From positions 183,920-235,213 of the forward strand of contig JAGUYM010000014.1 of NCBI GenBank assembly GCA_020061305.1: DNA of 51,294 nt, in the 5' to 3' direction. The stretch comes from Candidatus Woesebacteria bacterium. Lineage in GTDB: Bacteria > Patescibacteriota > Microgenomatia > UBA8517. A program made the translations under genes and the position numbers. How positions within the stretch are numbered: the first letter of the stretch is position 1; each line of letters opens with the position of its first letter. Of the stretch, positions 5,073-34,700 are shown piece after piece. Below the pieces are notes generated by a model. It saw only the letters and a list, made by a program, of their open reading frames with translations, had not been told where the DNA came from and did not search any database.

Positions 5073-5076
5073 ATGT

Positions 5077-5086
5077 TAATATTATA
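5077..5086. promoter_or_regulatory. Overlapping divergent -10 boxes for cca and recJ
   Basis: Minus TATAAT 5086-5081, 8 nt before ATG 5072; plus TAATAT 5077-5082, 8 nt before ATG 5091. Confidence 0.5.
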
Positions 5087-5090
5087 CAGT

Positions 5091-6674
5091 ATGAAATGGG
5101 ATGTATTGTATGGTTCGCCGATTACAAATCACAAATCACTAATTACTGCGTTACTTGAGAATAGAGGCTTGAAATCAAAAAAAGAAATTGATGAATTTTT
5201 AAATCCAACTAAAAATATAAAACTTGATATACCTAAAAATATTCTTAAAAGACTTAACGAGGCAAAAAAGAATAAAGAAAAAATTGTAATTTTTGGTGAT
5301 TATGATTGTGATGGTGTTTGTGCAACTGCAATTCTTTGGGAAACAATGTATAAAGAAGGTTTTGATGTAATGCCATACATTCCAGATAGATTTGAAGAAG
5401 GATATGGAATCAAAAGTACAACTTTTGCAAACTCTAAATTTCAAAATCTAAATCCGAATTTAATAATCACAGTCGATAATGGAATCGTTGCTTACGATGC
5501 CATTAAAGAGGCTAAAAAAAGAGGAATTGATGTAATTGTTGTTGACCATCATGCACTTGGAAACAAGAAGCTTACTACACCCTACATACTGCATTCTACT
5601 ATTGTATGTGGTAGTGCTCTCGCTTGGTTTTTATCCCGCGAACTGTCCACTGTTCATCGTTCACTGTTCACGGGTTTAGATCTTGTAGCCCTTGGGACCG
5701 TCGCTGATCAAATTCCACTTTTGGGCATAAACAGATCAATTGTTAAGTATGGACTAGAAGAATTAAACAATACAAAAAGACTAGGCTTAAGACAAATTGT
5801 AAAAGATGTGGGGGTTCAAAATGTTGGTGTTTATGAAATTGGTTTTATGATTGCTCCAAGAATAAATGCTTCTGGAAGACTTCTTCATGCAATTGATGCC
5901 TTAAGACTTCTTTGCACAAAAGACCCCAAAAAAGCAAAAGAATTATCAAAAAAATTAAGCGAGACAAATATTGAAAGGCAAAAAATTGTTGAGGGGGTGG
6001 TTGCAAGAGTACTGGAAGAAACGAGTGATGGAGATAAAATCATGGTAATAAGCGGTGATTATCATGAAGGCGTGATAGGGCTTGCATCAGGAAAAGTAAC
6101 CGAGAAATATTACAAGCCTTCAATAGTTTTATCAGTTGGAAAAGAAGTATCAAAAGCTTCAGCGCGGTCAATTAATGGTTTTAACATAATTGAGGCTATT
6201 AAAGAAACAAATTTAATTTTAGAAGGTGGAGGGCATCCTATGGCTGCCGGGTTTAGTATAGAAACCAGTAAAATTTCAGAATTTAAAACAAAAATAAATG
6301 AAATATCAAAAAAATATCTAACAGATGAGATTTTGGAAAAAAAATTAAAAATAGATTTGGAATTGGATTTTAAATATATAAATATTAAATTAATTGAAAT
6401 TTTAAAAAAGCTTGAGCCATTTGGATATGGTAATAGTCAACCAGTTTTTACTACAAAAAAAGTAAAAGTTGTTGAAAGTAAAACAGTGGGAAGTGATGGA
6501 AAACATCTAAAATTAAAATTAGAACAAAATGGAATTAAATTTGATGGAATATGGTTTAATAATAACCAAACGCCAATAATCAACAATCAATACGACATTG
6601 CATTCACGATTGAAGAAAACATTTGGAATAACAAAACCTTAATTCAATTGAAAATTAAAGATATCAAATACTAA
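5091..6674 (+). CDS. recJ: ssDNA exonuclease RecJ (start re-called from 5073 to 5091)
   Basis: GDYDCDG, TVDNG, DHH, TVAD, APRINASGR, GGHPMAAG, LEPFGYGN. Confidence 0.95.
   Translation: MKWDVLYGSPITNHKSLITALLENRGLKSKKEIDEFLNPTKNIKLDIPKNILKRLNEAKKNKEKIVIFGDYDCDGVCATAILWETMYKEGFDVMPYIPDRFEEGYGIKSTTFANSKFQNLNPNLIITVDNGIVAYDAIKEAKKRGIDVIVVDHHALGNKKLTTPYILHSTIVCGSALAWFLSRELSTVHRSLFTGLDLVALGTVADQIPLLGINRSIVKYGLEELNNTKRLGLRQIVKDVGVQNVGVYEIGFMIAPRINASGRLLHAIDALRLLCTKDPKKAKELSKKLSETNIERQKIVEGVVARVLEETSDGDKIMVISGDYHEGVIGLASGKVTEKYYKPSIVLSVGKEVSKASARSINGFNIIEAIKETNLILEGGGHPMAAGFSIETSKISEFKTKINEISKKYLTDEILEKKLKIDLELDFKYINIKLIEILKKLEPFGYGNSQPVFTTKKVKVVESKTVGSDGKHLKLKLEQNGIKFDGIWFNNNQTPIINNQYDIAFTIEENIWNNKTLIQLKIKDIKY
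5119..6590 (+). repeat. Five separate degenerate 7-mer arrays inside recJ: 5119-5146, 5427-5461, 5572-5599, 5644-5671, 6563-6590
   Basis: e.g. CGATTAC AAATCAC AAATCAC TAATTAC; TGTCCAC TGTTCAT CGTTCAC TGTTCAC; TAACCAA ACGCCAA TAATCAA CAATCAA. Confidence 0.7.
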
Positions 6675-6889
6675 CGACCAACCCCTAAATTTTGCCAGAA
6701 AGATTTTGGTAGGCCTGCTGGCGGTACTTGATCTTCCTCGACAGTGGCGGGCGCTTCCGGTTGTAATTGTTCCTCTGGCACGCCAAAGCCTCGCGCTTGA
6801 TCAGCTGCAGTAATTTCACCTAATGGTTTTTGTTCCGCCACAGGTTCATATTCAAAATTTGGACCTAGATATAATTCTTTTATTGTCAT
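6671..6889 (-). CDS. Orphan 72-aa acidic, Pro/Glu-rich protein
   Basis: ORF with perfect SD AAGGAGGTGA (6905-6896) 6 nt before ATG; has its own promoter and attenuator. Confidence 0.75.
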   Translation of the reverse strand: MTIKELYLGPNFEYEPVAEQKPLGEITAADQARGFGVPEEQLQPEAPATVEEDQVPPAGLPKSFWQNLGVGR

Positions 6890-6914
6890 TATTTTTCACC
6901 TCCTTTTTAATAAT

Positions 6915-6941
6915 AAAAAACCTCTTTTGTAAAAGAGGTTT
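6915..6941 (-). terminator. Intrinsic terminator (3:4 hairpin of attenuator)
   Basis: Minus strand AAACCTCTTTT-AC-AAAAGAGGTTT running into a T tract then ATTATT. Confidence 0.8.
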
Positions 6942-6968
6942 GTCAAAAAAAACAACAAGACAAACCTC

Positions 6969-7016
6969 TTAGTTAAAGAGATTAATAATTGTCTTGACTG
7001 CATTTAATATTTTCAT
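6969..7016 (-). CDS. Putative leader peptide MKILNAVKTIINLFN
   Basis: ATG 7016 to TAA 6969; the stop codon overlaps antiterminator segment 2. Confidence 0.6.
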   Translation of the reverse strand: MKILNAVKTIINLFN

Positions 7017-7028
7017 AAAGCGACTTTT

Positions 7029-7080
7029 AGTTTATAAAACCCAGTTCATAGTTGTCAAGACACAAATTTAAATCTAAAAT
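7029..7080. promoter_or_regulatory. Back-to-back sigma70 promoters sharing the TTGTCAA/TTGACAA -35 core
   Basis: Plus TTGTCA(7052)-17-TAAAAT(7075), ATG 6 nt later; minus TTGACA(7058)-18-TAAACT(7034). Confidence 0.65.
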
Positions 7081-7086
7081 ACCTAT

Positions 7087-8421
7087 ATGAAACGAACCTT
7101 GGTCAAAGAAACTGTCTCTAAAATTGATGAGAAGGTATTAATTAAAGGCTGGATAAATACAGTTCGTGATCATGGGAAGATTACTTTTATTGACTTAAGA
7201 GACAGAACGGGTGTTATTCAGTGTGTTGGTGCAAATTTGGAAAAAGTTACCCCAGAATCTGCAATTGAAATTATTGGAAAGGTTGTCAAAAGACCTGAAA
7301 AATTAATTAATAAAGATATTGAAACAGGTGAAGTTGAGGTTCAAATTGGAGAAGTGAAGATTTTAAATTTGTCTCAAGAATTACCTTTTGATATGGGCAA
7401 AATAGATTTGGATTTGAGTTTACCAACCCTTTTAGACAACAGATCCTTAACACTTAAAAATCAGAAACAAGCCGCAATATTTAAGGTACAAAACGAGGTG
7501 GCAAAAGCTTTCAGAAAAGCGTCAGAGGATATAAGTTGTCAGGAAATTTTTGTTCCAACAATTTCGGCATCATCGACTGAAGGCGGTTCTGAAGTTTTTG
7601 AGATCAAATACTATGATCACAAGGCATTTTTGACACAAAGCCCACAGTTATACAAGCAAATTGCAGTTGGCGCATTTGAAAGAGTTTATTTGTTTTCCCA
7701 TGCCTATAGAGCAGAACCATCGGTAACAACAAGGCATCTATCAGAAGTTGTTCAGATGGATTGTGAAATAGCATTTGTTGAAAATTTTGAAGAGTTGCTT
7801 GATACGGTTGAGTATGTGGGAACGAAGATGATAGTTGATGCATACCAAAATAGTCTTGATCAAATGAAACTGTATCAAGTAAAAAAACCCATTCTCGAAA
7901 ATAAAGTGCCTAGATTAACTCTTCATGAAGCACAAAAAATCATTGAAGAAAGAACCGATCGAAAGGTTGTTGGAGAAAAGGATTTATCACCTGAAGATGA
8001 AACGGAGATATGCAGATGGGCGCTTGAGGAAAAAAGGAGCGATTTTGTAACAGTTACCCATTTCCCAACAAAGAAAAGAGCGTTTTATACAATGCCTGAT
8101 CCAAATAATCCAGAATTTAGTTTGTCATATGATTTGCTTTTTAGGGGTGTTGAAATATGTTCAGGAAGTCAAAGAATAAATGATTACCAAATACTTGTGG
8201 ATGCAATCAAAAGCAGAGGAATGAATCCAAAAGATTTTGAAATGTATTTACAAACTTTTAAATTTGGTATGCCACCCGAAGGGGGGTTTTCATTTGGATT
8301 AGAGAGAATAACAATGAAGCTTTTAGAACTTAAAAATGTGCGTGAGGCTTCACTATTCCCAAGAGATATGGAAAGGGTTGATGTGAGATTTTCACAAGTT
8401 GAGGAAGCTTCAAAAAAATAA
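7087..8421 (+). CDS. aspS: Aspartyl-tRNA synthetase, short archaeal/non-discriminating type
   Basis: OB-fold VRDHGKITFIDLRD, LTQSPQLYKQ, YRAEPS.T.RHL, GMPPEGGFSFGLER. Confidence 0.85.
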   Translation: MKRTLVKETVSKIDEKVLIKGWINTVRDHGKITFIDLRDRTGVIQCVGANLEKVTPESAIEIIGKVVKRPEKLINKDIETGEVEVQIGEVKILNLSQELPFDMGKIDLDLSLPTLLDNRSLTLKNQKQAAIFKVQNEVAKAFRKASEDISCQEIFVPTISASSTEGGSEVFEIKYYDHKAFLTQSPQLYKQIAVGAFERVYLFSHAYRAEPSVTTRHLSEVVQMDCEIAFVENFEELLDTVEYVGTKMIVDAYQNSLDQMKLYQVKKPILENKVPRLTLHEAQKIIEERTDRKVVGEKDLSPEDETEICRWALEEKRSDFVTVTHFPTKKRAFYTMPDPNNPEFSLSYDLLFRGVEICSGSQRINDYQILVDAIKSRGMNPKDFEMYLQTFKFGMPPEGGFSFGLERITMKLLELKNVREASLFPRDMERVDVRFSQVEEASKK

Positions 8422-34062: not shown

Positions 34063-34091
34063 TTGACAACATGGTGTTCTGGAGGTACACT
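34063..34091 (+). promoter_or_regulatory. greA promoter
   Basis: TTGACA-17-TACACT. Confidence 0.8.
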
Positions 34092-34118
34092 TTAAACCTA
34101 ATTATATAAAATTAGTAT

Positions 34119-34172
34119 ATGACAAATCTTTCCAACATGTTTACTGTAATTAGCCTCATTAAGGCTAGGTAA
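34119..34172 (+). CDS. Putative greA leader peptide MTNLSNMFTVISLIKAR
   Basis: 17-codon uORF between promoter and terminator. Confidence 0.6.
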   Translation: MTNLSNMFTVISLIKAR

Positions 34173-34196
34173 TCTGTTGGGGAGAAGGTGGGCAAT

Positions 34197-34228
34197 ATCT
34201 CTCCAAATAGCAGGGGAGATTATTTTTT
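34197..34228 (+). terminator. Intrinsic terminator in greA leader
   Basis: ATCTCTCC-AAATAGCA-GGGGAGAT then TATTTTTT. Confidence 0.75.
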
Positions 34229-34247
34229 GTTAAAAATACATGAAAAC

Positions 34248-34700
34248 ATGAAAAAACAAATACAAGTAACACAAAAAGGATTGGATGCTTTAAAACAGGA
34301 ATTAGAAGAACTAATTAATTTCAAAAGGCCTGCACTTGTTGCCAGACTTTCTAATGCCAGAAGCCAAGGTGATCTGTCTGAAAATAGTGATTATCAAAAT
34401 GCTAGGGAGGAACTTGAGTTTATGGATGGAAGAATTGATGAACTTGAAGCTGTTATAAAAAATTCCGCAGTCGTTAGTGATGTTGATGGCGGTGGAATTG
34501 GTACAAAAGTAACAGTTAAAGTTAATGGGGCAATTCATACATTTGAGGTTGTTGGGGAATGGGAAGCCGATCCGTCAAAGAAAAAAATAAGCCACACTTC
34601 CCCACTTGGGAAAGCCTTAATAGGCAGAAAAGTGGGTGAAAAGTTTGATGTTGAAGCACCAGCAGGCAAGATTACATATGAAGTGGTGGCGATCGAGTAA
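34248..34700 (+). CDS. greA: Transcription elongation factor GreA (start re-called to 34248)
   Basis: ARSQGDLSENSDY, ISHTSPLGKAL, EAPAG. Confidence 0.96.
   Translation: MKKQIQVTQKGLDALKQELEELINFKRPALVARLSNARSQGDLSENSDYQNAREELEFMDGRIDELEAVIKNSAVVSDVDGGGIGTKVTVKVNGAIHTFEVVGEWEADPSKKKISHTSPLGKALIGRKVGEKFDVEAPAGKITYEVVAIE

Follow-up and report, generated by a model that had tools for sequence, protein, structure and literature searches.

A probable leader-peptide transcription attenuator with exchangeable downstream genes at the aspS–recJ locus of Microgenomates

A stretch of 51,294 nucleotides (nt) from a Candidatus Woesebacteria contig (JAGUYM010000014.1, positions 183,920 to 235,213; hereafter, the window) carries between aspS and recJ a compact minus-strand leader that is probably a ribosome-mediated (leader-peptide) transcription attenuator, representing an undescribed family at the aspS–recJ locus of Microgenomates within the Candidate Phyla Radiation (CPR, Patescibacteria). 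The closest genome records are metagenome-assembled genomes of Candidatus Microgenomatus and Levybacteria. The complete leader occupies the gap between the start of aspS, which encodes a class-II aspartyl-tRNA synthetase (AspRS; 7087–8421, plus strand) and diverges from it, and an open reading frame (ORF) of 72 amino acids (aa) on the minus strand, onto which recJ (5073–6674, plus strand) converges with a 4-nt overlap. The original prediction had proposed a promoter, an upstream ORF (uORF), alternative helices, a terminator, and a Shine–Dalgarno (SD) sequence at this site, and all of them were located where it had placed them, including the overlap between the uORF stop codon and segment 2, which amounts to two bases. 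All structural features that define a leader-peptide attenuator are present; the codon run and the biosynthetic or aminoacyl-tRNA synthetase (aaRS) target of the classical class are absent. The most unusual aspect of the element is the combination of a conserved switch with an exchangeable downstream gene, hereafter the cargo.

To our knowledge, gene control in the CPR, whose members have tiny genomes, few recognisable regulators, and no genetics, is largely unknown, and a literature search returned no paper on leader-peptide attenuation in Patescibacteria, a group that none of the 15 best of its 143 matches mentions. The 21 leaders with covariation reported here would provide a well-sampled case of classical ribosome-mediated attenuation in this group, with two twists: a uORF that lacks an SD and is nearly leaderless, and a switch that is conserved while the gene behind it changes from one close relative to another. 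If confirmed, the family would add an RNA missing from Rfam and a compact element testable in cell-free systems, and it would identify a family of small disordered proteins (Y.GP.F...ADQARGFGVPE) as products made when translation slows.

Architecture and conservation of the leader

Relatives were gathered from the aspS loci of genome and metagenome collections and from loci reached via homologues of the small protein, and the DNA upstream of aspS was read in each. This survey revealed 20 further distinct leaders with the same layout at the same locus (L001, L005, L007, L008, L009, L012, L013, L015, L047, L048, L049, L054, L055, L058, L059, L062, L063, L067, L082, and L128), next to AspRS genes whose products are 51–83% identical to that of the window. 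Statistics and folds refer to 19 of the 21 leaders, and the number of independent lineages is approximately 11. Every leader presents, in the same order, a TTGACA hexamer (perfect in the 20 relatives with the promoter read), a −10 element, a short ORF, a purine-rich segment 2, a pyrimidine-rich segment 3, and a terminator followed by a T-run; the coordinates in the window are given in Table 1. The mimicry of segment 4 by segment 2, observed in the window, is common to the leaders of the relatives. The leader was absent at 17 other aspS loci of similar distance, several of which have recJ directly abutting aspS. At L016 and L019, where the attenuator is missing, unrelated small genes occupy the corresponding slot next to aspS and are preceded by another motif, GTCAGGTTYCYGTCAAGC, conserved between the two loci.

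Table 1. Features of the aspS–recJ leader and of the greA leader in the window (positions in the 51,294-nt stretch; helices and hairpins are given as predicted)
Feature	Position	Strand	Sequence or composition	Basis or remark
Leader −35 hexamer	7058–7053	minus	TTGACA	sequence and promoter scan
Leader −10 region	7029–7036	minus	TATAAA 7036–7031 (16-nt spacer) or TAAACT 7034–7029 (18-nt spacer)	sequence
uORF	ATG 7016, TAA 6971–6969	minus	MKILNAVKTIINLFN, 15 codons + TAA	sequence
Segment 1	6976–6996	minus	outer arm CAAGACAA 6996–6989, inner arm CTCTT 6980–6976	folds and alignment; within uORF
Segment 2	6956–6970	minus	AAGAGGTTTGTCTTG	folds; partner segment 1 (anti-antiterminator) or segment 3 (antiterminator)
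Helix 1:2		minus	CAAGACAA 6996–6989 / TTGTCTTG 6963–6956, around CTCTT 6980–6976 / AAGAG 6970–6966	
Helix 2:3 (antiterminator)		minus	AAGAGGTTTGTC 6970–6959 / GACAAACCTCTT 6944–6933	12 perfect pairs
Segment 3	6933–6944	minus	GACAAACCTCTT	nine bases double as terminator 5′ arm
Intrinsic terminator 3:4	hairpin 6941–6918, T6 tract 6920–6915	minus	AAACCTCTTT-TACA-AAAGAGGTTT	
SD of the 72-aa ORF	6896–6905	minus	AAGGAGGTGA (core AAGGAGGTG, 6905–6897)	ATG 6889
72-aa ORF	6671–6889	minus		GC approximately 44%, versus 23–37% in the flanks
aspS promoter	7052–7087	plus	TTGTCA-17-TAAAAT, then 6 nt, ATG 7087	sequence; putative transcription start
greA leader	34063–34251	plus	TTGACA-17-TACACT; uORF MTNLSNMFTVISLIKAR 34119–34172	

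In the window, the promoter scan lists TTGACA-18-TAAACT (10/12), and promoter geometry suggests a transcription start near 7024–7021. The leader terminator is the only terminator-like site that a terminator scan detected within 6000–8000, and the combination of a TTGAC promoter with a strong hairpin and T-run 140–160 nt downstream occurs at only two sites of the window, namely this leader and a leader preceding greA. The 146-nt leader folds at −32.9 kcal/mol, compared with −21.9 ± 3.1 kcal/mol for 200 shuffles (z −3.55), and its minimum-energy fold consists of helix 1:2 plus the terminator. An Rfam scan of both the 6300–7500 region and the whole window detected no family at either the E-value or the gathering threshold except two tRNAs, the best match of the leader being the PyrR site (RF00515) with 21.4 bits and E = 3 against a gathering threshold of 54. 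Distant leaders were recovered only weakly (E 0.03–6) by a covariance model trained on the seven closest; this model detected no copy in any other setting within 249 kb and did not match the greA leader. A second model was precluded by the low quality of the MAFFT alignment obtained for the divergent subfamily, and no loop or junction sequence was conserved across subfamilies.

The short uORF is kept in 21 out of 21 leaders of the locus. Its start codon (17 ATG and 2 GTG) lies 36–43 nt after the first T of TTGACA in all 19 leaders, with no SD, and would be located approximately 2–8 nt from the transcription start in most of them, as judged from promoter geometry (a 5′ untranslated region, UTR, of approximately 5–8 nt in the window). 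Initiation at or near the 5′ end is plausible in these organisms because the aspS mRNA itself looks leaderless, both in the window and in the relatives. An ORF of at least ten codons from such a start was present in 19 of the 19 leaders, compared with 5–20% of dinucleotide shuffles; when the position of the stop codon was fixed, a start in frame with it, followed by an open frame, was found in 0.4–4.8% of the shuffles per leader (2.4% in the window, with the start at the observed distance). These sequence statistics are far beyond chance even at some 11 independent lineages. Additionally, three separate indels of 3, 3, and 6 nt in the close subfamily fall within a stretch of the uORF left unpaired by all predicted structures. 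In the L059 and L082 subfamily, the uORF is longer (32–34 codons) and hydrophobic, ends in GGLFR, and has its stop codon in the 2:3 loop; such a frame could specify a small membrane peptide or be a variant of the same switch.

Mutually exclusive helices and the proposed switch

The best duplex between the region following the uORF and the 5′ arm of the terminator has an energy of −11 to −20.5 kcal/mol, which usually makes it more stable than the terminator; the latter in the relatives measures about −9 to −15 kcal/mol and is poorly defined in L015 and L062. In the window, this 2:3 duplex reaches −18.6 kcal/mol, whereas shuffles average −5.7 ± 2.0 kcal/mol and none out of 1000 was as good; across the leaders, it surpassed shuffles at P ≤ 0.03 in 17 of 19. 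Segment 3 overlaps the terminator 5′ arm by 6–10 nt in 17/19 leaders (not in L015 and L062), and in 15/19 segment 2 begins 0–5 nt beyond the first stop-codon base, the exceptions being L015, L059, L067, and L082. The 2:3 partners are lineage-specific in sequence yet complementary to one another, as in the pairs AAGAGGTTTGTC/GACAAACCTCTT, GGGGTTAAGTTT/AAACTTAACCTC, GGGAGATTTTG/CAAAATCTCCC, and GGGAGGTC/GACCTCCC. In L048, a terminator C-G pair is replaced by U-A, and 2:3 retains a G-U pair at that position. In an alignment of the seven closest leaders (A1), pairing reached 96.7% for helices 1:2 plus 3:4, three of whose pairs had changed on both sides, and 97.6% for helix 2:3, with two such pairs, whereas sliding the partners by 1–3 columns as a control left 32–67% paired.

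These features are compatible with the following sequence of events. A strong sigma-70-type promoter would yield a transcript whose SD-less uORF of 15–19 codons starts 2–8 nt from the 5′ end. On a transcript free of ribosomes, segment 1 would pair with segment 2, allowing the 3:4 terminator to form and the transcript to end near 6915. A ribosome that has reached the stop codon would lead to the same outcome: its footprint would cover segment 2, since the first paired base of this segment is the second base of the stop codon, and 3:4 would form again. By contrast, a ribosome delayed approximately 5–9 codons before the stop (over V-K-T-I-I, V7–I11) would mask segment 1 and leave segment 2 free to pair with the emerging segment 3, which would use up the 5′ arm of the terminator and let RNA polymerase read into the SD-led gene. 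Read-through would require a ribosome that has started on the uORF and is delayed over segment 1, so that the switch would report slow uORF elongation.

Each of the 19 leaders was folded under an imposed ribosome footprint. The free RNA adopted helix 1:2 plus the terminator in 18/19 leaders; only L005 folded into the antiterminator even when free. With the ribosomal P site placed six codons before the stop, the 2:3 antiterminator became the optimum in 11 of the 19, the window included. A ribosome positioned on the stop codon masked segment 2 and restored the terminator in all leaders but the atypical L015 and L062. The constrained folds, as predictions, reproduce a trp-type logic. Stalling in segment 1 that frees 2:3, in the manner of trp and his leaders, was the core of the original prediction, which had also left the conservation of the uORF and the covariation across relatives to be verified. 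The logic is supported, at the level of sequences and modeled structures, by the retention of the uORF in every leader, by indels of whole codons, by the stop placement in 15/19, by compensatory changes in both of the approximately 97% paired states, and by the three footprint-dependent folds.

Exchange of the gene behind the leader

The 72-aa protein had no Pfam or NCBIfam match, and the same held for the cargo proteins scanned in the relatives. The original prediction had regarded its gene as an orphan; nevertheless, a hidden Markov model search over 1.84 billion cluster representatives retrieved 24 relatives, 54–134 aa long save for one 531-aa protein with repeated matches to a short stretch. 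They share [DE][IL]Y.GP.F...G.YT.ADQARGFGVPE..L and, in some cases, PP.GLPKSFW..LGVG, in agreement with the motif Y.GP.F...YT.ADQARGFGVPE..L...PP.GLPKSFW of the family. On these sequence grounds, the 72-aa protein is a member of a genuine but narrow family. AlphaFold yields three short helices with a predicted local distance difference test score (pLDDT) of 71 and a predicted template modeling score (pTM) of 0.27, and the protein is predicted to be mostly disordered.

Homologues of this protein follow the leader in L001, L005, L055, and L128. Elsewhere, the cargo is a Cys-rich 73-aa protein (L007), zinc-ribbon-like proteins (L047 and L049), an acidic 55-aa protein (L048), or proteins spanning 58–417 aa (319 aa in L082 and 417 aa in L013). 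Direct evidence for a hypervariable aspS–recJ slot comes from a 60-kb contig of a related strain, recovered in two DNA runs (X5 and X7), in which 6666–7012 (345 bases) is replaced by 381 unrelated bases; this contig keeps recJ, the promoter region, and aspS and loses the cargo gene together with most of the leader. Because the cargo differs between close relatives, the switch belongs to the locus and not to the gene, and hence the cue is unlikely to be tied to cargo function. The original prediction had attached the leader to the 72-aa gene, and in this respect it requires correction, given that unrelated genes stand behind nearly the same leader. Its statement that the target is not biosynthetic holds in a wider sense: the regulated genes, which differ between loci, are neither amino-acid biosynthesis nor aaRS genes among the cargo proteins scanned, and no rRNA methylase, ABC-F protein, or efflux-pump domain was detected in them.

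In several loci, the interval from terminator to cargo contains additional features. In L047 and L049, an extra promoter is followed by a long inverted repeat (TTTCTGAAAAA...TTTTTCAGAAA) ahead of the zinc-ribbon-like gene, and the cargo in these two loci has its own control on top of read-through. A second mini-ORF of 7–15 codons is located between terminator and cargo in L005 (2267–2320, minus strand), L054, L059, and L128 (802–849, plus strand). Its products, such as MDKNKKTNEGGDDK and MNIKQKAQTKVNGGE, read the cargo SD GGAGGTGA as G-G-D/E and end at or over the cargo start. L001 and L127 have instead a full gene of 71–73 aa with the same ending (...NGGENL and ...TGGDSNE), and the window has no second mini-ORF ahead of its cargo.

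Weighing the attenuator against other readings

Several observations weigh against leader-peptide attenuation. The locus was found only on contigs from DNA runs, and none of the contigs from three metatranscriptomes of the same study extended over it. The uORF lacks an SD and its translation is deduced from its conservation; in L128, the 5′ UTR would be about 23 nt, and in L059 and L082 the uORF reads through segment 2. The uORF peptides diverge between subfamilies, and the conserved C-terminal half in the close subfamily (K-T-I-I-N-L-F) coincides with paired RNA; thus, most of the conservation seen in the peptide could be due to constraint on the RNA alone, and the coincidence offers no evidence for a specific arrest peptide. 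As the original prediction had noticed in the window, there is no run of any codon, and across the 19 leaders repeats of a single residue never exceed three, with no conserved run among them. With respect to structure, 2:3 was no better than shuffles in L015 and L067, and in 8/19 leaders the terminator stayed the thermodynamic optimum with segment 1 masked, so that 2:3 would there have to win kinetically, before segment 4 is made. Finally, nearly identical leaders precede unrelated genes, which removes any physiological logic linking cue and target, and L047 and L049 have a second TTGACA promoter between the leader terminator and the cargo.

The last two observations are also what a stand-alone small gene would predict, in which an RNA of approximately 110 nt and/or a 15-aa peptide acts in trans and read-through into the downstream gene is incidental: the unit is conserved, the gene behind it is swapped, and in L047 and L049 that gene has a promoter of its own. 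Trans functions are documented for attenuator RNAs and leader peptides, as in rnTrpL/peTrpL (PMC6614838, PMC7298713), which counts in favor of this explanation. Nevertheless, it leaves unexplained both the antiterminator that overlaps the terminator, kept with differing sequences in 17/19 leaders, and the stop codon abutting segment 2, and the peptide diverges strongly between subfamilies. We consider it unlikely as a replacement for attenuation, to which a trans role could be an addition.

The position of the leader raises a second explanation, which we regard as improbable, according to which the element is a transcription insulator and promoter competitor, modulating aspS through the shared −35 region and blocking antisense transcription into recJ with its terminator. 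The aspS −35 hexamer TTGTCA (7052–7057, plus strand) overlaps the leader TTGACA, the aspS start and TTGACA are spaced by 31–35 nt in ten leaders (the window, L005, L007, L012, L047–L049, L054, L055, and L059), and recJ converges on the cargo gene. However, in the remaining half of the loci the two promoters are 46–200 nt apart with the leader intact, L013 has no recJ within approximately 1.5 kb on that side, and neither a uORF nor an antiterminator would be required for simple termination. Both a trans-acting product and the insulation of recJ or competition with the aspS promoter may be alternatives or additions to attenuation.

Lower still in our estimate stands an RNA switch whose 1:2 hairpin is bound by a protein, as with PyrR or L4, or by a small ligand, as in riboswitches, with the uORF being coincidental. 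The long 1:2 hairpin with its conserved apical stem-loop and the weak PyrR-site match would suit such a switch; yet that match scores far under the gathering threshold and no other Rfam family reached its own, the conserved pairing is not accompanied by any loop or junction sequence shared across subfamilies, and the fixed promoter-to-start distance, the open frame, and whole-codon indels are unexpected for a pure RNA element. That the hairpins serve only as a plus-strand terminator for recJ, a caveat attached to the original prediction, is rejected: the inverted repeats form hairpins on that strand too, but they are followed there by TTTGTC and TTAGTTAAAG instead of a T tract, the scan found no terminator, recJ ends 240 nt away (6674), and with long cargo genes (L082 and L013) the element stays beside aspS while recJ is far or not nearby.

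For the attenuator, the likeliest cue is slow elongation, reflecting possibly the supply of Ile-tRNA or else translation speed in general. This assignment rests on the Ile codon ATT being the only recurring, unpaired, and conserved codon: it lies in the internal loop of segment 1 in 8/8 close leaders (ATT ATT, 6989–6984, between the two arms in the window) and is the sole conserved feature that pairing does not explain, N-terminal uORF residues varying freely. By hand count, at least one Ile codon is among the last 11 codons of every leader; recurrent Ile is only weak evidence for the cue, given that Ile makes up approximately 8% of genome codons. The rare codons of the window uORF, GTC (8% of Val codons) and CTC (4% of Leu codons), are both in paired segments. 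Sensing of Asn, suggested by the neighboring AspRS and the conserved N-L-F, was set aside, as the Asn codon lies in a paired segment and is absent from L049 and from the divergent subfamily, and transcription of aspS runs the other way.

Among known systems, the class of Escherichia coli trpL, hisL, pheL, thrL, leuL, and ilvL shares with the present leader a promoter-proximal leader ORF, four segments with mutually exclusive 1:2, 2:3, and 3:4 helices, a U-tract terminator, and a stop codon placed for the masking of segment 2, together with read-through upon stalling in segment 1, which is predicted here. The present leader differs in having no codon run, no SD, a nearly leaderless uORF, no sequence or Rfam similarity, and, as its target, a small and mostly disordered protein that varies between relatives in place of a biosynthetic operon or aaRS gene. 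In E. coli ilvL and ivbL, Ile, Leu, Val, and Phe dominate the part of the leader peptide that overlaps segment 1. These residues account for about half of the last ten positions here (hand count), with no long runs and with targets other than ilv genes, and their abundance may simply follow from the pyrimidine-rich composition of segment 1.

Inhibitor-induced stalling attenuators are known for vmlR, bmrCD (with BmrB), ermK, and Listeria lmo0919. As in the present leader, a short uORF without an amino-acid run couples stalling to the choice between terminator and antiterminator, and the cue is translation status instead of one amino acid, likewise proposed here; they precede resistance genes (rRNA methylases, ABC-F proteins, and efflux pumps), often with known arrest motifs, and neither applies to our leaders. 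The Bacillus subtilis yxjB leader is a ribosome-stalling attenuator of this kind, induced by translation inhibitors (PMC6851288). Leaderless leader peptides also occur in attenuators, as in the polycysteine short ORFs of mycobacteria (bioRxiv 10.1101/834739) and in 14 cases in Deinococcus deserti (PMC4007540). These actinobacterial and Deinococcus frames resemble ours in being SD-less, at or next to the 5′ end, and in controlling a downstream gene; they are rich in the cognate residue (e.g., Cys) and precede matching metabolic or aaRS genes, whereas ours show no enrichment beyond recurrent Ile, have a putative 5′ UTR of 2–8 nt and not a mapped 5′-AUG, and belong to the CPR. By analogy, the leader seems to resemble general ribosome-stalling attenuators in function and the leaderless frames of Actinobacteria and Deinococcus in initiation.

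The greA leader on the plus strand of the window follows a comparable plan. Its segment 2 is GGGGAGA, a mimic of segment 4 (GGGGAGAT followed by a T-run); its 5′ UTR would be approximately 20 nt, and folding under footprint constraints gave the three states that an attenuator should adopt (free, stalled, and at stop). Local alignment to the 19 leaders reached significance with a few of them only, and there solely over the terminator-like part; the sequences point to a common design with the aspS-locus leader, homology between the two being unproven. A more speculative and rather doubtful extension is that the leader constitutes a cargo-independent sensor of the lag of the ribosome behind RNA polymerase, forming with the greA leader a minimal "translation-status" regulon, and that its copy at aspS–recJ provides an inducible platform for swapped, fast-evolving small-protein genes. 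If so, a nearly leaderless uORF cassette would read translation speed, and not one amino acid, in a CPR host with few protein regulators.

Two minor observations concern the promoter side of the locus. The overlap of the two −35 hexamers in the window indicates that the aspS and leader promoters may compete. In L001, two copies of an element of approximately 35 nt (ATTGGGATTGCTTCAC...GTTCGCAATGAC; 316–360 and 410–445) are located between aspS and the leader promoter and may constitute a small repeat or a miniature mobile element.

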